From Psammoneis japonica (lineage: Eukaryota): 64,000 nt of DNA. The position numbers were made by a program, and so were the translations under genes. Below the pieces are notes generated by a model. That model had not been told where the DNA came from and made no database searches. It saw nothing but the letters and a program-made list of their open reading frames with translations. Below, in pieces: positions 37,264-49,054 of this stretch. The stretch spans positions 62,001-126,000 of the forward strand of contig QPGO01000139.1 in the NCBI GenBank assembly GCA_008632985.1, in the 5' to 3' direction. How positions within the stretch are numbered: the stretch's first letter is position 1; each line of letters opens with the position of its first letter.

Positions 37264-38916
37264 TTGCTTCTTGCAGACTCAGTGTAAAAAGTGCCAAGTT
37301 GATGGTGCTGCAAGTGCTCAGAGCTTGGCATCTGATGACAGGCTTTTCAGAGCACTCGAGCTGGGTGTGAGAAAGAATGCCAGCAACAGAGGCCACAGAG
37401 GCAAAAAGAAGAGGCAACTGCTCAGTGAAACAATGCTGCAAAATGCTCAGAATTAAGAGCACAAAACTTGCTTCATGACAAATGGCACAGGTGCTCTGCA
37501 CTCCTTGCCACTTCCATGCAGACTGCCTTGCCCAGATGAGGGCCTCAAGAGTGAGTTGAAGGCTCAATCCTGTCATGACTGGCGCAGACTGGGAAAGCCT
37601 CAGAGATGCATTTTTGGACACTGTGCCCACCAGTGATGAGCTGCAAGAGCTTCTGACCAACCCATCCCAAGGTCCTGCACTGTTGGGCTAGACTGCTGAC
37701 TTTGTGCATGGCCGCTGCATTTGCATGAACACAAACTTTGTGTTGACTCATCCAAAGTCTTGCTCCTGTCAGTCTTCAACATGATGGGATGCAAGCCCTT
37801 CAAAAACCTGAGAGTGGAAGCAGCCTGCTCTCAAGCTTTTGGGCACTCTGCAAGAGAACACTGCGCTGGTTGCAACGGAACCTTTGGTGCTTCCATCTTT
37901 GACTGACCTGCTTTTGTTGCATTTGGCAAGTGCCGTGAACAAGTGACTTGCGCCACTTTCTGAGGTGCCTCTGCCACATGACATGCACTCCCAGCAACTG
38001 CTCAACTGTGTTGATGGCACATTGCTTGCACCCCTGCTGCCACCCCTTCCATGGCTGCCAGCTGACCCCAGCACCCACCGCAGCCATGACTGGAGACCCT
38101 CTGCCACTGTGCCAATGCTGGCCCTGACCAGGGCCTCTGATTCAACCACTCCATTGGCCCCACCCTGCCTGAACCTCACCCCCCCAAGAATGCATGCCTC
38201 CTTCTGCTTTTCTTTGTGTGCAAATCTAAGCTGGCTGCATTGCTCCAGGCACTGCACTCAGATGCCCCAATGCAGGCATGAACAGGAGCTCCAAAATGTG
38301 CGCACCAGTCTCACGTTGGTGTCATCTTTCCCTTCTGCTTCATGTGGCTTTGAGTTGCTTGTCAATTTCCAGGTTGGCGCAGTTCTCAAACTCCAACATG
38401 TTTTTCACAATCTCGCTGTGTCAAATTGTCACATCCAATGCATTGCTTGCACTCCAACATTGTTTTTCTTGCCCTTGCCTTTTTGCATGCACAAATCATA
38501 ATTTCGTGTCCTCACCCATCCTTTGATTTGTGCTTCAATGGGTCGTTGCTCCAGGCACTTCACCAAACTTTGTGGAGCACTTCATTGAACTTTCAGTCAA
38601 CTGCCCATTTCCAAATTGGCACAGCTCTCTCCTGCAAAATGTTTTTTGTTTGCTGTGAGAATCACACTGCATCAAATCATTGCATCGGTGCAAACGTGCT
38701 GCACCAAAGTTGATTTTTTCATTGACACAAAACTGATGCAGGATCGAGAGCCCTGACTGGCACCTCCTGTTCGGCAAGACTGGGCGCAAAGCAAATTTAA
38801 TTGGGTTCGATGAAACCCTCGCACGGAAGGACGGGTTGGACATCACCAGCACTGTCACTGCTGTCGACTTGCCTGACGGCGTGGTGGTTCTACTGTGCAT
38901 GCACGAGAGTCCAACG

Positions 38917-39113: not shown

Positions 39114-41885
39114 TCATTTTTTTCCGTCTTCGGGTAGATATGACCATGTTCCCGAAAAGACCAGGCGACCCTGATGCACACCCATGGAACCCTCGACAAC
39201 AACTTCTCCGTCGTCCCTGCCACGAGACTCCGCATTCTCCGCCTTGTCACTTTGAAGGCTGGGCATTTTTTCCGTGACCAACTTAGAAGAACATGATTCT
39301 TCAGCCGGGTCAACAGCAGAAAACGGAAAACGCACGGTATCGAGGCTCGTCTCAATGATATGTTCGGTAGGACGCTCTAAGAAAGAAGCATCCTTTTCCA
39401 ACAGATACACCCCAATGTAGCTAACAGAACCAAGTGACATGAACGCCAAAGAGAACCAAAGCAACGTGTCTTCTCCATCGTCCATCCCCATGAACGCCCC
39501 AGCAATAAAAGCATTCACCGAGTCAATGAGGTTGCCAAGGATGGCGTATATTCCGTATCCGAGACCTGCACGAGCTGGGCCTACGATGAAAGGAATAGTG
39601 ACAACGCCAAGGTCACAGTAGCTAGTTGTGACGGCAAATAGGCATGTTGCGACCCACACAACAGCAGAATTCTCTGTTGACAGTAGGAATCCGTATGCCA
39701 ACAAACTCATAAACACGGCAAGAAAGCTAAGTCTCGCACGGGCACCGGTTTTGTCACTGAGGATGCCCATCACAGGACTCACTAACGAACCGCAGGAGGA
39801 AGAATCGGAAGCGTCAACCAAAATTATCCGATTTTTGCAAGAGTCATTCCGACGATTGTGCAACGAAAGCAAAAGCACTTACATGGGCCAGCAATGAGTG
39901 AGGTTAGTCCGGTGGCCAGTGAAGCTTGAGACTGAGAAAGACCGTATTTTTTGGCATACAAGTCCACGGAGTAAAGTGAGAACGTGTTGAAGTAGTAATT
40001 TACCCCCTTGATTCCAAGAATTGTGAGATAAAAGGAAGCCGGGAGTTTGAACGAAGCTAGTCCCGTCGGAGCTTTAGGAATTGCAGCCTTCGCAAAGCCT
40101 GCAAAAGTTCTTTCGAGAACAGCTTCGTCAGAGTCGTCCGTGCTATCGTTTTTCTTCCTCTCCTCCATGAAAAGCCCCGCAGCAACAGCGTAAGTAGCAG
40201 CAGTTGAAATAATACAAAACATAAAGCACATAAAGAGAGCAAAATCAGTTCCCGTGTTGTCGAGAGGTGTCTCGCTTCGACTATCTGCAATGACAGGTAG
40301 GAACTGGAAAGCAGCAAAGGCCTCAACTGCGATTAGAAGTCCCATAATTCCAATCATCAGCCCGATCTGCTTCGGAAATACAAGGCTGTAACATTCGCTG
40401 GTAGCAAAGAACAGGGTTTCCAGCCCAAATCCAATGAGGAATCTTGCAAAGACAAGAAGTCCATACAGATCTGGGGTATCTGCATACCACTGCAGGAGAG
40501 CCCCTATCGACATCTGCGGGACGTGCAGCGGTACAACAGAGGCAAGCAGTACAAAACATGAGCCATACAAAGGTCAAACCGCGGGACCATTGGCTAGATC
40601 GAGCAATAACACGCTCACGACTGAACTTACTATTGTACTGGCGCCAGCGCCTACGGGAGCAGGTCCTGTAACATTATCCATAAAGTAGCCACCGATGAAT
40701 GGACTGATCATTCCGGCAGCAAAATAGGCAGTGTTCAATACCCCAATCTCTGCCTCGTTAATGTCCATCCTTGCCATGAATCTTTCAGTCATGGCAGCCA
40801 CGGCAAAAAGAGCGAACAGCCCACCAAATGTGAACGTGGAGATGGCACAGAAGTAGAATGTACCACGGCAGGTCGGAAGGCACCTCGTTCCATTGGATTC
40901 CTCCCCATCTTCGCCCTTCTTGACAACGACAGCCCGCACAAACGCTTCCCTATCAAGTGTTCCGTTAAGCCGACGCTGTTCGCCGACCCAATCTGTGATG
41001 CGGGAAACGGTTGATTCTGGAAGATCTGGTGTTGACGACAGGTCAGCCCCCTTTATAGTTTTAAGCTCTTGGGCCATTCCTCTGTCCATCAGACTTGTAT
41101 TTCCTGTCTTGACGGGCGTAATATGAGACGTGTGCTTGACTTTCATAACATTTCGTTGGGACATGAGATCGGCGTAACCTAAACAAACATCCTCAGCCGA
41201 AAGGTCACCGTCCTGTCTCGAATAGGGAAAAGAATGGTTACAATATGCGATAACCAATCAAACAACTGAAATGAAAGGGGTCTGAATTCACTTACCTGAT
41301 CTACATCGTAGAGCGAGAAGAACATGTTGGCAACGTCTTCCGGCGTTCCCCTCAAAAGTGGGGAAATGCCCTGCACCAATTCAAACCTTGTGATTTCTCC
41401 TGAATTGTCATCGTCGAAAAACGTCCAAAGGCGCCTCACCAGCCCCTCGTGCTTCAAACCAGCGCTCCCACACAACGTGGCAAACTCCTCATAGTCAATC
41501 ATACCATCGTCGTTCACGTCGTTGACATCCTCGCGGTTGTAGAAATCAATGATTTCGCGTTTGGAAAAGTTGGTAGTTTCGAGGAGGGTTGCAAGTTCAT
41601 CCTCCGGGACATTGCTGATTCTCCGCCCTTTCTTCTTCTTTTTCTTATCATTGTCACTCGTTTTCCTACGTCAAGTCGAGTAGAAAGGGAAAATAATGAG
41701 AAGCCGAGGACAAACGCAGTGTGCACTGAGTAGTTAGCTATCGATGCAACAAATTTGTGAGTGGCATCTTGAACTGATCTCCCACCGACCAGCCATCACA
41801 ATAGGACTTACTCTACATATCCTTCTTCCAAGTCCGGGATAGTGGAGCTTTTGCCCTCGTTCTGTTTCGAGACATCGGCGTTCAT
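39114..41885 (-). CDS. EF-hand (NCS/calcineurin-B-like) domain fused to an MFS (MFSD1-like) transporter, about 5 exons
   Basis: ELATLLETTNFSKREI, EF loops DVNDDGMIDYEEF, DDDNSGEITRFE and YDVDQ|DGDLSAED. Then MFS helices (SPFIGGYFMD, ARFLIGFGLE, PVMGILSDKTG). GT-AG introns at about 41811-41668, 41295-41213, 40630-40514 and 39882-39782. Confidence 0.82.
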
Positions 41886-42255
41886 CTCGTCGTCCTTGTC
41901 AATGTTGTCAAAATTGGTCTTCAATGAGGCTGGGTCACCCGCTGTCACGCATTTCACAACATTTTTACCAGTACAGGCAGTGTGTACCGGTAGGGCCTAC
42001 TCTAGAAGTACCAGGTAGGTTGAAAATGAGTGAGTGTACAGTATGTACGTATGTGCGTGGCAAGATCTTTGCAATAGCCCCTGCCCCTGCCCTGCCCTGT
42101 TGAAGATCGCTACTGTACATTTTTCAGATCACTTGTCCGTCGATTTTTTTAATTAGGGGACCTCTCTGAAAAATTGAAATATTTCAATTCGCTCCAGCAG
42201 CGATTTTCAGCGTGGAGCGCCAAAGCGAAAGATGCCACATCGGGACCAAAGCCAT

Positions 42256-44520
42256 GACGACGATGAACAGCGCTGCAGCGACGCTCGGGCCCTTCGACTT
42301 CATCAGCCGCATTGGTTTGGGTGACATCGAGCCTGAAGAAGTCAAGAAGGCCACAGATGGGAGAAAGTTCACACCATCCCAAGAAAGAGACAACTTCTCA
42401 AAACGGCAGCTGACAACCAAGCAGCAATTCTGGCGGATCTTCGCACTCGCTTTGGGTTGAAAGCGGGTGAAGTTGATCAACGCATTGCTCAATTTGAAGA
42501 AACGATAAAGGGAATGCCCAAGCTCTCGAGTGGCAACTTCAGTGGATCCGTGTGCAGCGAGTGCTGCTTCAATTTTGCCGCTCTGCTCAAAAACATGCTC
42601 GGCACCTCATCCGACAAGCCGTGGACCAGAGAGTCGTGCAAGAAGTGTTTGGATCCACTTGTGTGTGCTCACAAGGAAGCAAAAGAACCAGCACTGGAGA
42701 AAAAGCATGACTGCCTCAACTCCTGCATTGTGAAGCTCAGCAAGGAACAGCAGAGTCGCGGCCATGGCGCAGATGCCATGGACCCGCCAGATGGGGACAA
42801 GACTTGTGTTTCATGCGGTCATGACTCACTTGATTTCCCATGCTCAAGCATGGCAAATCATGAGGCAAATGCAAAGAAATGACAAGAATGTGAGGCAGCA
42901 TTGTCAGAACACAACCACGACCCAGTGGCGTGGCGAGCCGCAAACAACAAACAGAAGCCTGCCGAACCCAAGCACACAGCTGCACATGCACAATGCCACT
43001 GTCACCAAATGCACTGCATGGGCCACATGCAAGGCACGTGCAATGCATGCAAACAAGATCCACCCAGACCACAGGACGATGGTGTGTGCCCTTGTGCGGC
43101 ATGCCTTTGTGAATGCAAGGCAGCAACCCAGGTGAGTCGTGTTGTCGAGCTCATCCTGTTTGCATGTGATCAACGTCATGTTGCGTGACTGCTTGCATGT
43201 CGTTTCTGTCTTTGCACTGCATCTTCACAGTTTGACAAGAAGCAGCAACTTGTGCACATTGCATTGAGAAATGCGCAGAGTGCGAACCGTCTTGACACAA
43301 GGGAGGAGCTCCTCAAGCAAGCTGTTGCCGATTCTTGCATCTTCGGAGCGCTCAACACAGGATTTGCGAATGGCAGCAGGGCAGCTGCTGAAGTTGCAGC
43401 CCAGGCATGTCCGCATGCTGATGCCGTCGCAATTTGTTCACAACAGATGAGCATGGGGCACTGTCTGCGGCAAAGGCATGCGCCGGGTTGTTGCCATCAT
43501 TTGCAAATCAGGCCGAGGGTGAGGAGATGAGGCAGCTTCGTTCTCTCTTTGACAAACCAACTGCCAAGGCAATTGGGCCCGCGGGTGACCTTGTTGATGC
43601 TTGAGGAACTCATGCAACAAAGGGACATCGAAGTGGGGACAATTGCATCAAGGACAGTGCAGGTCCTTCCCGGGGAGGACTCGGTTCAACTCATGTGAAG
43701 ACCAGTCCACCGGTGCCGGCACAAGGTGGCAACATTTCTTCACGTCACGACGTGCCAGTGGATGTTGCACCTCCATTTGGCCACCTGATTGGGCCCTCAG
43801 CTGTGGCCACAACACCAGCCACAGGGTTGGCAACCAGCAACCAGGGCTTTGCTCCACCGCCTGTGAGCCCCAATGAATGCCTCCATCTTCTCCAGCACAA
43901 TCCTGCTGAACTTCATGCCCAGATTGAGGCACTCAGAAAATGCGAGCATTGCCAACCCAGCTTTCAATCCCCGCCTTTTCATGCCGCAGGTTCCTTGCAA
44001 CAAATTGTGAATGACCCATCTGCACTGCAGGAGCAGGTCCATGCATGTCAGCATCATTCACAGCAGGCCAGCCAGAAACCAGCAGCTGTCAACAAGGAAA
44101 CGATGGCGCAAGAAGCAATCAATGTTGATGAGGGCAAAGATGAAGGGAACACACTCTCTCTAAAGATGGGCAAGCACTTGCATTTGCCAGCAGTTTTGTT
44201 GGTTGGTGCGTGGCTCACACAGTTTTGCACTCATGCAATCACTCAGAGGCAAATGACACACCTTCCAAGGGAAAACGCGCTCGAGCCACAATCAGGCTCC
44301 ACGATGCAAGCTTTGGGATCCGAGCCCTCGATGGTGCGACAGCCGATGAAGCTTTTGACTCGTATGAGTGTTCCACCCCCCATCCCACGGAAGTCAGCAA
44401 CCACCTCCAAGCAGTCAATCGCTCAAGGAAAAGGAACTGGGAATTCAACGAATTCGACTGCGAGGCCAAAAGGCCTGGATCGTCCGACACCATGGGGTCA
44501 GAAGCGGCAGCCAATGTGGT
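42256..44520 (+). pseudogene. Second (cargo) ORF of the Tc1-like element, Cys-cluster protein, disrupted, with one apparent intron (about 43132-43230)
   Basis: Continuous reading frame with in-frame TGA stops: CVSCGH...CHCHQMHC...CNAC...CPCAACLCEC. Donor cag|gtgagt and acceptor cttcacag. Confidence 0.6.
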
Positions 44521-44849
44521 GATTAGTCTAAATCGCCACCAGAAGAAGAGGTCTTCTCAGCTGTTGTGGATCGTCCAAGAAGACTGTTGTAGATGGCCAG
44601 ATGGGCCAGCTCAAAGCAGAAAAGAGGGAACACAGCAGTGGACAGAAACACCGTAGATGTGATTTGCAACTTCCAGAATGCAGCAAACAAGAGACACCTT
44701 AGAAATGAATTGCAACTTCTAGAATGCAGCAGACAAGAGATGCCGCACCTTAGAGTCGAATGGAAACTGTCACACATCACATGAGTGCGGCACTTGTGAG
44801 GCATGCTGAGATGAAGAATGGCAGTGGCTGACAAATTATGTTCTAGCAT

Positions 44850-45900
44850 CTGTCAATTTTTTTGTCTAAAACCGACCTCATAAAAACATGGGCGGCAAGG
44901 ACCAAGCGTTCTGACAACAGAACGCGACTCTCACACAAGATCTTCGTCGTTGAAGATCTTGTGCGAGCGGTCCTTGAGGGCCCCTTCGAATGTGTTGAAC
45001 ACGAGTTCAATGGGGCCGTCCACCGGGCAGCAGGGGGTGCGGAACACCACCCGGTGGCCCGCCATGAGAATTGATCGGACAACTGGGGGGTGGTGGTGCA
45101 CCACCAAGTTGTCCATCATGAAGCATCGTCGCCTGTGACCAGGTGCCCAAGGGCCAATGTCTGCTAGAATCCCGTCAACAAAACTCCTGAATGGTGTCAC
45201 ATCAGCTCCAGCTTGCTCCACAAATTTGCGCCAATGATGACCACATGGAGACATCGGCCTTCAAAAGAATTCTGCCTCTTCCATGACCATGCACTCCAGT
45301 TTTGCGGCATCGGCACTCCAGTGATGTCTTGGCACGTGATCGGTTCGAGAACTCAGCAAGAATTTTTGCTTCGTCTGCATCAATCACATCTTCAAGCTCA
45401 GTGTCAGCAATTCCAAAGGGATGCACCACACACCAAAACACTGCTCACTGTAAACACAATGTGGCTCACAGGCTTGGTGCACAGTTGTTGACGATTTCTT
45501 CCGTGAAAACCCAGTTCGCTGCTCCACCTTCGCAATCTGGCCCTCGTTGCACCAAATTCCAGCGGCTTGATGCAACATTGCAATCTTTTCCAACCCAGTT
45601 GCATCAGGGAAGCACATTGCACAAAGGGCCAATGGGACAAGCTCCGGTCCTTGCAACACATGAGCTCTGATGTTGCCGGCATGCCGATGCTCACAGCAAG
45701 CATTTTCGATCCGCGCACGGTTCCGCCATCGACTGAGGGTCCATGTGACTGGATGCAGCTTCAGTCTGCACTGCTCTCTCACTAAAAAATCTTCATTTCC
45801 AGTCACACAACATTGCAAACAAATCAGTCTCAAATCCCTCGAGTGTGCAGGAATTGGCTTTCTCACAATTGTGCCGCGACGGTGCACGGTCTTTGTGGGG
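44850..45900 (-). pseudogene. DD34E transposase, disrupted
   Basis: IDADEAKI, then MMDNL-x34-PIE (FRTPCCPVDGPIELVFN). N-terminal HTH-like TLSRW and GFSRKKSST. Confidence 0.9.
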
Positions 45901-46911
45901 GGGGGGGGGGTTCTGGCATTTTTCTGCACTTTTCCATTCACCATCTTTGCAGTGGCATTCCACATCATCATGTGCATCAATGCAACATGCAATGTCATCA
46001 TCAAAGTGTTTGCTGCACTCCATCTGACGTCCGATGGTTGGTCATGATGTTTTTTGCCGTGTGAAACCACGTGGCGCATCGGATTCTTGAAATGTTTCAC
46101 AATTTTTCAGAGAGGTCTCCCAATTAAAAAAATCGACAGACAAGTGATCTGAAAAATGTGGTGATCATCGCATCGTACAGCACAGTGCTGCACTGCATGT
46201 ACAGTGCATGCTGCATCAGCCAGCCCGCCAGGCCAGGCAGACACAGAAATGCAGCAGTGCCGCCACCGGCATTCACAGGTCCGCGAAGAATCAAACAGTT
46301 GCTCAATCATGCTGTGCTTACGAAGAGACCAAACAAAAAGAGGCAGACTAGAAAGGTGGCGTTCAAGGTGCGCAAATGGTGTGATGATGTGCCACATCTT
46401 CATGGCCAATGGCCATCGCCTCGGTGCCGGTCGGCACACATTGAAATTTGCTCAAGCGTGAGATGGGGGGTGCTTTGGGTCTTTTTTCGTTTTGTTTTTC
46501 CATTTTTTCATCCCCAACACTTTTAAAGATTCTTCTCATGTAAGAAAGGAAGGAGGACACACTTAGACTAAAGGACATGGTGCATGCATCTGTTTGTTGC
46601 GATGCGATGCGATGCGATGCATTTCTGGGAAGCAGAAGAGAAAATTCGGAATTTTTATGAATTTCGCAAAAATCTGTGTTTTGACAAAAATGGTGTGTAT
46701 GTTTTGGCGGGAAACAATGTTAATATTAGTTATTGAATACGGTATATAATAAGACAACTGGAGGAACAACGACACAGGATACAAAAGGCTTTAACGATGT
46801 GATGTGATTGATGATAGGCCTTTCTTCTCCTCTGGAACGATGTATTCAAAGCAAATCCGCAGCCGTACATCATTTGTGAGTAGCTTTGGCGATATGAAAA
46901 CAAGCGACGGC

Positions 46912-48850
46912 ATGCAAGTACTGGTAAGGTTGTTGCTGTTCTTTTATGTTGCTACTGCGGTTCAGTCGCTTGCCGCCACAAGCAGCAATACCAGAGAAAG
47001 ACCCATTCCAATTACAGTCCTATCGGGCTTTCTTGGAAGCGGGAAGACTACCTTGCTCCAACATCTGTTGCACAACCGAGAAGGCCTTCGCATCGCTGTG
47101 ATTGTCAATGATGTTGCTTCAGTCAATATCGATTCAAAGCTGATTAGTGGTGGGACTGCGTCGGAAGCAGCGGGCATGGTGGAACTACAAAATGGATGCG
47201 CTTGCTGTTCTCTATCGGATGAATTGCTGGCGTCGGTATCAGAACTAGTGACTTTGTCGGATATGAGAGGAGATGAAGAAAAGTTCCACCATATTGTCGT
47301 GGAACTCAGCGGCGTGGCTGACCCCAAGAGTGTGCGTGCCAAGTTTCAAGAAGCGATTCTCTATGACATGCCACTGATGGAACGAGTGAGACTGGATACT
47401 CTTGCTACCGTTGTTGATTGTAGTGTATTTTTAGAGCACCTTAAAAGTTCCAAGGACGCAACAGCCACGGAAGCACCGGAACTCTTCTATCGTGATGGGC
47501 AAAAACCAAAAGAGGAAGAACCAGAGGCGTGGATGGAAGGCATGCCGGCTCCACTGGTGGAAGCTCTACTGGCGGGACAGAACTCGGCAATGTCGTCCAT
47601 GATGGAGACGTCGGGTGACGGCGTTGCGGACTTGTTGGTAGGCCAAACAGAAACTGCTGATGTAGTGCTGCTCAACAAGATAGACCTGGTCGATGAGGAA
47701 ACATCCTCACAGATTGAGCAAGTTGTTCGGGCCCTTAATCCTCGTGCTACAGTTCTGCCATCAAAATATGGAGAGGTGGACCCAACGCAGATTTTGGCCT
47801 TTGCGGGTGGAAAGGGTGTTGTGGAAGCAGGCGTGGTTGATGATCATAGAGATGCCGTTGAGGCTGTGACGAAGTTAGTAGATGTTGGAGAATCTTTGCA
47901 TGCTGCTTCGAAATCCGACCCAAGCCATTCGCACACTCACAGCCACCATCATCAGTCAGATGATAGCACGGATCCAAGTGATTCCCATTCGCACACTCAC
48001 AGTCACCATCATCAGTCAGAGGATTGCACGGACCCTAATTGCACGGACTCAAGCCATTCCCATTCGCATACTAGTCATAGCCATGCAGGGATTGGCTCTT
48101 TTGTGTATCGATCCCGTCGACCTTTCCATCCTGGGCGACTCGTTGCATTTCTTAGAATGTTACCAATTTCTCGTGGTCTACCCGAAACGCAAGAGGAAGA
48201 ATCTCTTGAAGTCACTACCGAAACAGAAACTGCGCTCAAGAGCGTTTTGCGGAGTAAAGGTTTTGTTTGGTGTGCAGATTCAAACGTTGCCGCCTTGTAC
48301 TGGAGTCACGCCGGCAGCTCTTTTGAGATGCAGGTAAGAATTTTGAAATGGCGTTCTTACACAGGCTCAGCCTGTGGTTCTGATGATGCAGTGAGGTTTA
48401 TCGGAATGCGTCTAAAACTTACTTTCTCTTTTACTTTTGAAGTGCCTCGGTCGATGGTGGGCAGCATTACCAAGATCACAGGTACGTGCTACGAAATCCA
48501 AGTGATGGCACTTGCGATTTTCTGAGAGAACTTGTACTAACAGTCGTTCTCTTGCTCTCTCGTGTACTCTCTAGTGGCCAAAGGAAGTAACACGTACTAT
48601 TTTAGCAGATTTCGATGACGCGGATCATGTCGAAGGAGAAAGTGACTCTGTGGGTGATCGAAGACAAGAGATAGTTTTTATTGGACAGAGACTGGCTGAC
48701 GACCAAAGACAGAACCAAATTTCCAAAGCCCTCGACCAGTGTCTTTTGACATCCAAGGAGTGGAGTGATTTTCGATCCAATGCTAACAAGGAAGAGAATC
48801 TGCGATCGCTATTTGCGAACTCATTAAATGTTCGAATGGCAAGCTACTGA
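46912..48850 (+). CDS. CobW/COG0523 metal-chaperone GTPase with signal peptide and His-rich insert, 3 exons (46912-48333, 48443-48481, 48575-48850)
   Basis: LSGFLGSGKTT, IVNDVASVNID, LQNGCACCS, ELSGVADP, LNKIDL, RPFHPGRL, LRSKGFVW, GRWWAAL and GDRRQEIVFIG. Confidence 0.93.
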
Positions 48851-49054
48851 TTTCGGAGGGACACCGTTGAGTGGAAAAACAGAGACGACATCATCACGCA
48901 CCCACACTCGTTCATCAGACGTCTGGCAATGTTCAAAAAAGAAAGATACCATACCTTATATTTGTCGTGAAGCTAGAGATACGCTGCCTCGCAACTGCCT
49001 CTACGAGTGCTTTTCCCTCCTCTCTAAAGTAGCTATAGCCCTAGACCCTAGCAC

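Follow-up and report, generated by a model that had tools for sequence, protein, structure and literature searches.

Transposons that belong to IS630/Tc1/mariner (ITm) target the dinucleotide TA, and multi-ORF members, TBE and Tec, have been described in the accessible parts of PMC7325037 and PMC2874221. According to the part of Dupeyron et al. 2020 (PMC7325037) that is accessible, elements with a DD34E transposase (Tc1, HvSm, Tec and TBE) combine this catalytic triad with a DDE_3 domain, short terminal inverted repeats (TIRs) and a 2-bp flank, and they duplicate TA. The Tc1/mariner-related element Tc4 has a DDD triad, targets CTNAG and duplicates TNA (3 bp), as given in the available part of 10.1101/2023.11.06.565293. 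Here, we describe a transposon of 4052 bp (positions 42110-46161) in a 64,000-nucleotide stretch of the genome of Psammoneis japonica (G000:C139:62001-126000, of the 91.4-Mb assembly G000; the whole stretch is termed the window). The element has the DD34E triad, the DDE_3 domain, the short TIRs and a 2-bp flank in common with the known DD34E elements and, like the ciliate TBE and Tec, an extra ORF beside the transposase; in contrast to these elements, as far as the accessible text describes them, its family duplicates CG, its clade is diatom-associated, and its second gene is without a Pfam family. With Tc4 it shares a target-site duplication (TSD) other than TA, but Tc4 combines DDD with 3-bp TNA, and the present family DD34E with 2-bp CG. 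We regard it as very probable that the locus represents a CG-duplicating DD34E ITm transposon, of which one end was edited after insertion by a repeat-confined mutation process.

The CG target is the new part of this finding: no CG-duplicating ITm family and no paper on diatom ITm elements was found in the literature searched, in which this branch of ITm is undescribed (Repbase, Dfam, subscription journals and supplements lay outside this search, and may hold such a family). The TpA hypermutation, on the other hand, represents a type of process that is already known, although the host is new. For Bigelowiella natans, the accessible part of Mettrop et al. (10.64898/2026.01.13.699255) reports measured TpA>TpG/CpA hypermutation with a mutation rate raised 1000-fold, an enrichment of DDE endonuclease genes among TpA-depleted sequences, and an adenine deaminase as the proposed agent.

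Ends of the element and the CG target

A search of the genome with the left TIR gave 26 matches and a pattern search 25; pooled, and with the identical contexts of C38/C5 and of C101 merged, these make up 26 distinct end contexts (altered end C309 re-registered by eye; the left end in the window scored by eye among the intact ends, as a 5-bp insert parts its CTA from CATTTT). Half of them (13/26) keep CTA before CATTTT; all 13 are preceded by CG, with variable bases further out, and so is one further short end, on C47. The family end reads CG|CTACATTTT, in which TA occupies TIR positions 2-3. In the 13 altered ends, the same TA was resolved differently, as CTG (6) or CCA (5), the remaining two reading ATG (1) and CAA (1), and the preceding dinucleotide is CA (5), TG (3), CG (2), AG (2) or AA (1).

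Empty sites were recovered for three other insertions. A miniature inverted-repeat transposable element (MITE) on C200 lies in a repeat for which both flanks are present in 7 of 17 paralogues, each with a single dinucleotide (6 CG, 1 TG); in five more paralogues, which form part of a diverged subfamily, one CG was seen by eye, and five of the 17 are without that end. A 2.3-kb copy on C9, which carries the transposase 5' region, has the TSDs CG and CA, and all nine paralogues fetched (of ~31 matches) hold one dinucleotide at the site (6 CG, 3 CA). A truncated MITE on C17 begins right after a CG that is found in 5/5 near-identical empty copies. No TA was observed at the junction in the empty sites of any of these three insertions. 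Since the empty sites hold a single CG or a decay product thereof, CG is duplicated and the TIR starts with CTACATTTT. The initial annotation had proposed a Tc1-like ITm transposon with a TA target; the ITm type is supported by the transposase (DDE_3, DD34E) and the TIRs, and the TA target is contradicted by the CG of the empty sites, so that the case which the annotation had itself named as refuting it, an element other than a TA-targeting ITm transposon, applies here. A derivation of CG from TA by two hits was considered and ruled out, as TA steps survive in the young MITEs and in the corresponding empty sites, although the junction dinucleotide is CG. These MITEs (255 bp, 14 TA steps each) indicate recent activity of the family. 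For C248, C101, the C9 MITE, C9:357543, C85, C37 and the right end of C2, no junction-spanning paralogue was found.

In the window, the left TSD is the intact CG at 42108-42109, as placed by the family ends and the empty sites of the other insertions. The left TIR (42110-42188, plus strand; 74 bp and the 5-bp insert) matches intact MITE and C2 ends, with every TA and CG step intact. The right TIR (46087-46161, minus strand) is the transposase-promoter end, and its terminal TAG now reads TGG (46159-46161). The right TSD (46162-46163) reads TG, for which a change from CG after insertion is indicated by analogy with the CG/CA pair and the CG empty sites of the C9 copy. The TIR pair comprises 60 nt at 95% complementarity and is not a chance pairing, since the second-best inverted pair of the window reaches only 71% over 38 nt. 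Short-read contigs of the runs X1 and X2 (X2 listed as 'DNA?', yet with intron joints) were compared with the window and cross both element junctions; the left-junction contig (39055-42145) differs from the assembly in no letter, and its 5 gap letters match two indels.

The initial annotation had placed the element at 42116-46160, between a left TA and a right TSD changed from TA to TG. The letters on which it relied are present (TA at 42116-42117 before CATTTTTCAG, and CTGAAAAATG followed by TG at 46159-46160), as are its three TIR mismatches, but the ends were drawn 3 bp too far in: the right TG is part of the TIR, and the true right TSD records CG>TG. The left TA is the end of the 5-bp insert (42113-42117, plus strand), which follows the TA of TIR positions 2-3 to give TA-NNN-TA and thereby created the TA that was taken for a TSD. 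This insert is present in a short-read contig and absent from the other 25 family ends, and it may be the excision footprint of a TA-targeting element. The footprint of Sleeping Beauty is TAC(A/T)GTA, and the TA-NNN-TA form is general. TACTGTA and TACAGTA are not enriched in the gene islands of the window (4 and 2 in 28.4 kb, compared with 4-9 for control 7-mers), so that the footprint reading is without local statistical support. The accessible part of PMC2874221 prints the footprint as TAG(T/A)CTA. A separate 4-bp insertion relative to the assembly, at 42014 in a TA-rich promoter stretch, is seen in an X1 contig; like the 5-bp insert, it resembles a Tc1/mariner excision footprint.

Other insertions of the family comprise composites of 8.7-11.5 kb bounded by CG-flanked ends, on C38 (L093/L094, C38:533434-544990), C5 (L095/L096, C5:20719-30350) and C2 (L092, C2:410734-419410). 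Inside each lies a fragment of the transposase 5' part, together with unidentified cargo that is kilobases long, and the C38 composite has an extra, TA-rich (younger) insertion of 1.9 kb that is absent from C5. A MITE on C101 (L041, C101:66929-67253) lies between two perfect, mutually inverted copies of ~35 bp of host DNA, which represent a rearrangement at insertion or an assembly artefact. The repeat that hosts the C200 MITE (left flank of L045; paralogues L053-L059) ends in reverse-complemented CACAGTG, which we take to be a Transib/RSS-like terminus.

Transposase, second gene and related families

The transposase gene (44862-45944, minus strand; 359 codons) is decayed and is the most complete copy found in G000. 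It matches DDE_3 (E 0.0015) and, over its full length, the intact relative P0001 (E 1.7e-97); with the breaks read as X, the identity is 54%. Its lesions comprise frameshifts near 45430 and 45260 that compensate each other, a single in-frame TGA at a codon for Arg or Trp/His in relatives, and CAA at the stop position of the relatives. The catalytic residues are D (45375-45373), D (45113-45111) and E (45008-45006), all on the minus strand; the second D and the E are 34 residues apart, and D188/D190, D277 and E312 are nearly invariant in 58 sequences. DDE_3 was found in 54 of the 58 aligned relatives, and the top Atlas matches are all DDE_3. The IS630 model NF033545 gave E values of 3e-8 to 3e-13, below its curated cut-off, and spans residues 38-345 of P0080. 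No helix-turn-helix Pfam match was obtained in the 58 relatives. In a midpoint-rooted tree of 36 rows, built from relatives of the clade only (without Tc1, mariner, pogo or IS630 references), the window transposase groups with 11 intact or near-intact proteins (100/100 support). The clade has the motif YxPxDGPIE, the Tc1 motif being YSPDLNPIE. After the first catalytic Asp, the clade carries the segment GLYGHG[K/R]G, a candidate for a role in target choice; the corresponding region contacts the target in Mos1 and Sleeping Beauty. Its nearest named relatives are Thalassiosira proteins (~40% to P0001), and the top Atlas cluster is commonest in Bacillariophyta. Among its intact close relatives are P0001, P0080, P0140 and P0141, of which the last two are on contigs of 28 and 89 kb.

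The window element belongs to ITm by its transposase and is a variant by its target: a DDE_3/IS630-type transposase, the DD34E spacing and TIRs of ~74 bp are present, and a TA TSD is absent. It does not belong to CACTA/CMC, as CG is present in the empty site, so that CGCTA is not the terminus, and the transposase is DDE_3. The gene lies 217 bp inside the TIR, a layout that is shared with the TA-targeting sisters described below. P0081, a close relative from another source, is a read-through protein in which this TIR appears in translation, upstream of the transposase, and it supports the link of this TIR to the enzyme.

A second, Cys-rich gene, also decayed, is convergent with the transposase (42200-44520, plus strand, limits approximate), and its product is probably metal-binding. 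It was recognised by weak homology to the second ORF (ORF2) of related elements: positions 42667-43110 align with ORF2 of two elements, a sister on C1 (pairwise E 3e-4) and L162 from a metagenome (E 0.004), and a profile of four ORF2s ranks the second-gene frame first in the window, with E 0.04 and high bias. For ORF2, a word search gave no homologue, Atlas no match, and a three-sequence profile nothing significant; the relatives' ORF2 was also without a match to a Pfam family. The second gene of L162, L163, L166, L168 and L387, together with the above segment of the window, represents a conserved, unnamed Cys-rich protein (~770 aa in L162).

Sister families with DD34E transposases and TIRs starting CTAC resemble the window element in having an inward transposase from one TIR, a convergent Cys-rich gene and a length of ~4 kb; unlike the CG-flanked family of the window, they are TA-flanked. 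In G000, such a family (C1:1123361-1127271 and shorter copies) has TIRs starting CTACGAATT and the same two-gene layout. Its flanks read TA at 9/11 ends and TG at 2/11, and its TA target is read from these ends, as no junction-spanning paralogue was found for the C1 element. Two metagenome insertions (L160/L161 and L165) read TA|CTACATTTTCCA at the transposase end (one end of each). The transposases of the TA-flanked metagenome families are 34-35% identical to P0001, and those of the CTAC-ended sisters overall 32-35%. The TA flank of these CTAC-starting TIRs places the TIR start at C, and the flanking dinucleotide thus differs between families. The metagenome scan yielded 10 loci, all distant (34-40%), with a TIR end in only three of them (two insertions). 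TIR-pattern matches in viral contigs numbered 37 and 16, none of the 37 extending as a TIR, and no transposase relatives were found in viral contigs; 120 pattern matches in prokaryote genomes were taken as chance.

Within G000, 91 pattern matches were obtained, and several more CTAC-ended DD34E/MITE families (at least four TIR types, the flank being scored for one) are abundant (L387, L388, L389). The transposase frame of the sister copy on C1 is stop-free and partly TA-converted.

Direction and limits of the mutation

The window consists of gene islands (TA observed/expected ratio, o/e, of ~0.5-0.6) that alternate with repeat blocks (TA near 0, CG low). The interior of the element has an o/e of 0.08 for TA and 0.59 for CG (155 CG versus 17 TA steps in the element), compared with 0.61/0.89 and 0.53/0.86 in the flanking genes. 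The direction of change is TA>TG/CA and CG>TG/CA, with the left end ancestral. As held in the initial annotation, the ancestral states are those of the left TIR, and it is the right TIR that has changed (TA>TG/CA, CG>CA), on which the intact family ends and the intact transposase relatives agree. Its claim that this polarity follows without an outgroup fails with its premise, the TA TSD; the direction is established by the family copies and the intact relatives as outgroups. The right TIR has 3/4 TA steps and 1/2 internal CG steps converted, namely TA>TG at 46094 (A>G), TA>CA at 46121 (T>C) and CG>CA at 46138 (G>A) in addition to the terminal TAG, and its surviving TA step lies in TTAA; further differences, which the initial annotation had not listed, are two inserted base pairs, C>T at 46118, outside any TA or CG step, and, at the inner edge of the TIR, a transversion. 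Compared with P0001, none of the 17 Tyr residues survives (7 are now His, 6 Cys, 2 Arg, 1 Lys and 1 Phe), and Trp is kept at 4/4 and Phe at 10/18 positions; compared with P0002, 1/13 Tyr is kept. A>G and T>C changes at TpA are present on both strands, as a historical pattern.

A duplicated element on C38 and C5 differs at 167/7668 sites (2.2%), versus 7/3640 (0.2%) in its right flank, which serves as a proxy for a raised mutation rate; its partly stripped left flank differs at 25/4425 sites. These differences in the element include 15 of TA versus TG/CA and 10 of CA versus TG, all unpolarised. These differences would fit a fast loss of TpA, followed by a slower loss of CpG.

Residual TA steps, pooled from TA-poor bins of the window and 14 loci, survive best in TTAA, with a ratio of 0.39 to the gene islands, followed by CTAA/TTAG (0.26), and no ATAT is left among 1148 A-flanked/T-followed TA, TG, CA or CG steps; these contexts possibly reflect a sequence preference of the mutator. 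Between the convergent genes (44480-44865), the TA o/e is 0.35 (including a three-copy 46-bp repeat), versus 0.02 and 0.08 in the coding parts. Within single-copy TA-poor DNA, positions 38273-38274 are CA in the assembly but TG in an X1 contig, which we read as two alleles or strains that resolved one ancestral TA or CG in opposite ways.

The mutated zone is shifted relative to the element. On the left, TA steps persist to 42180 and then vanish, so that the zone stops ~80 bp inside the left end; on the right, TA is low until ~46600-46700, and the zone overruns the right end by ~450 bp. The host flank at 46164-46600 is partly stripped of TA (o/e 0.29, versus 0.53-0.61 in the gene islands), and no paralogue of this flank was found in the own-genome search. 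From these positions of the zone edges, the left TIR and TSD would have stayed ancestral and the right ones would have been edited. Spliced X2 contigs cover both neighbouring genes and almost none of the element. The left neighbour is an EF-hand/transporter-like gene (minus strand), of which the 5'-most transcribed piece found (41812-41948; spliced X2 contigs with CT..AC joints) is 160 bp from the left TSD; its EF-hand Pfam match is on 41182-41670, and the transporter likeness was judged by eye only. The right neighbour is a CobW-family GTPase gene (46796-48940, plus strand; Pfam cobW E 9e-46), for which a spliced X2 contig starts 633 bp from the right TSD. The left end had initially been described as the one next to a gene island, which holds for the spliced contig 160 bp off, but the right end is also near one, and the two ends are not cleanly separated in this respect. 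For the ends of TA-stripped elements, the state of the end follows the number of TA steps in its outer 300 bp: 5/5 ends are intact with at least 6 TA, and 13/13 are altered with 5 TA or fewer (Fisher p 1.2e-4, with a post hoc threshold and ends that are not independent). This pattern points to a positional mutated zone, the edge of which may be held back near transcribed genes.

Fungal repeat-induced point mutation is likewise a repeat-confined, dinucleotide-specific transition process that spills into flanks; it changes C>T at CpA and creates TA, whereas the process described here removes TA. In common with Bigelowiella natans, TpA>TpG and TpA>CpA occur on both strands and are confined to foreign or repeat DNA. 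As far as the accessible part of Mettrop et al. extends, B. natans shows new mutations in integrated viruses with TpA only halved, whereas the transposon in the window represents an end state; CpG loss and a sharp edge near genes are further features of the window element that distinguish it from B. natans.

Interpretation, alternatives and implications

We propose that an ITm transposon of the cut-and-paste type, from a DD34E clade associated with diatoms, entered a CpG that lies between two genes with divergent transcription, and that CG was duplicated in the process. The transposase of the family would make the usual 2-bp staggered cut of ITm but read CG, not TA, as the outcome of a switch of target inside its clade. 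Once inserted, the element would have fallen into a repeat-confined mutation zone; the changes observed there are a conversion of almost every TpA, and of some of the CpG, to TpG or CpA. By analogy with Bigelowiella, the change at TpA may be adenine deamination on either strand, and the loss of CpG may be decay of methyl-cytosine.

Several observations weigh against this interpretation. No intact transposase of the family was found in G000 (21 candidates scored), and a profile search of PDB sequences gave chance matches only and no solved ITm structure. The TIR of P0081 is preceded by Ser, which fits neither CG nor TA if that TIR is intact (one decayed copy), and this counts against assuming CG for the whole clade. 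Of the 13 altered ends, two read AG and one AA in place of the TSD, and in two the expected CCA or CTG is replaced by CAA or ATG. Among the empty sites, some C9 paralogues are near-identical to one another, so that the nine are not nine independent sites, and C17 shows the left junction only. The empty allele of the window insertion was not found in the assembly; no joint across the element was seen in the X1 and X2 contigs either, and such contigs drop rare variants. A duplication of CG and a blunt C^G insertion are inseparable from sequence alone. Finally, 116 of the 167 differences between the C38 and C5 copies are CG versus TG/CA and unpolarised.

IS630 prefers CTAG, and a TIR starting with CATTTT, with TA as the TSD in a strict CGCTAGCG target palindrome, would bring the present family close to this pattern. 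Such a boundary would agree with the TA that directly precedes CATTTT at every intact end and with the definition of ITm by its TA target (PMC7325037, PMC2874221, accessible parts); we consider it hardly tenable, because the TA and six extra bases are absent from the empty sites at all three insertions tested, and because the TIRs of relatives start CTAC with another TA outside. An insertion without duplication, i.e. of ends GCTA...TAGC bluntly between C and G, would still be strictly CpG-specific, and it predicts identical filled and empty sequences. It is nonetheless very unlikely, since the sisters likewise start with CTAC but have TA as their 2-bp flank, which places the end at C, and since the known ITm chemistry is a 2-bp staggered cut (PMC2874221, accessible part).

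The CG-flanked copies could also have been moved by another enzyme, e.g. a CACTA/CMC-type transposase reading CGCTA ends, with the DD34E gene as a passenger. The resemblance of CGCTA to CACTA would fit this, as would the lack of an intact DD34E copy of the family in G000 although young MITEs exist. A CGCTA end predicts no CG in the empty site, yet one is present, and both the position of the DD34E gene inside the TIR, as in the TA-targeting sisters, and the TIR translated by P0081 tie this enzyme to these ends; we judge the involvement of another enzyme highly improbable. As to the asymmetry of the ends, the left TIR matches young ends in every letter but those of its insert, as would be expected if the left end had been repaired or replaced from a young copy, or if the donor had already been mutated. 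This explanation of the asymmetry is very unlikely: the right TSD and ~450 bp of unique host flank are also converted, a change that is possible only in place, and the end state tracks the flank state across the family.

The preferred reading is, therefore, that of a CG-duplicating family edited at one end after insertion. The TA target is used as a defining mark of ITm, and a CG-duplicating DD34E family beside TA-flanked sisters makes target choice testable by domain comparison. In our assessment, this is probably a CpG-targeting branch of ITm, in which a DD34E transposase switched from TpA to CpG while its sisters kept TA. That the switch was favoured because TpA was erased first from the host repeat DNA, leaving CpG as a safe landing site, is a doubtful suggestion that we put forward tentatively. 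TG and CA can arise from either TA or CG, so that in G000 a TSD that reads TG cannot safely be assumed to have been TA. The CpG dinucleotide is the methylation site in diatom repeats and transposons; if the CG target is true, insertion by this transposase possibly reads CpG methylation, and such an enzyme could be methylation-steered. The intact relatives in public metagenomes would then form a natural pair with the TA-targeting sisters for finding what sets the target choice of ITm transposases.

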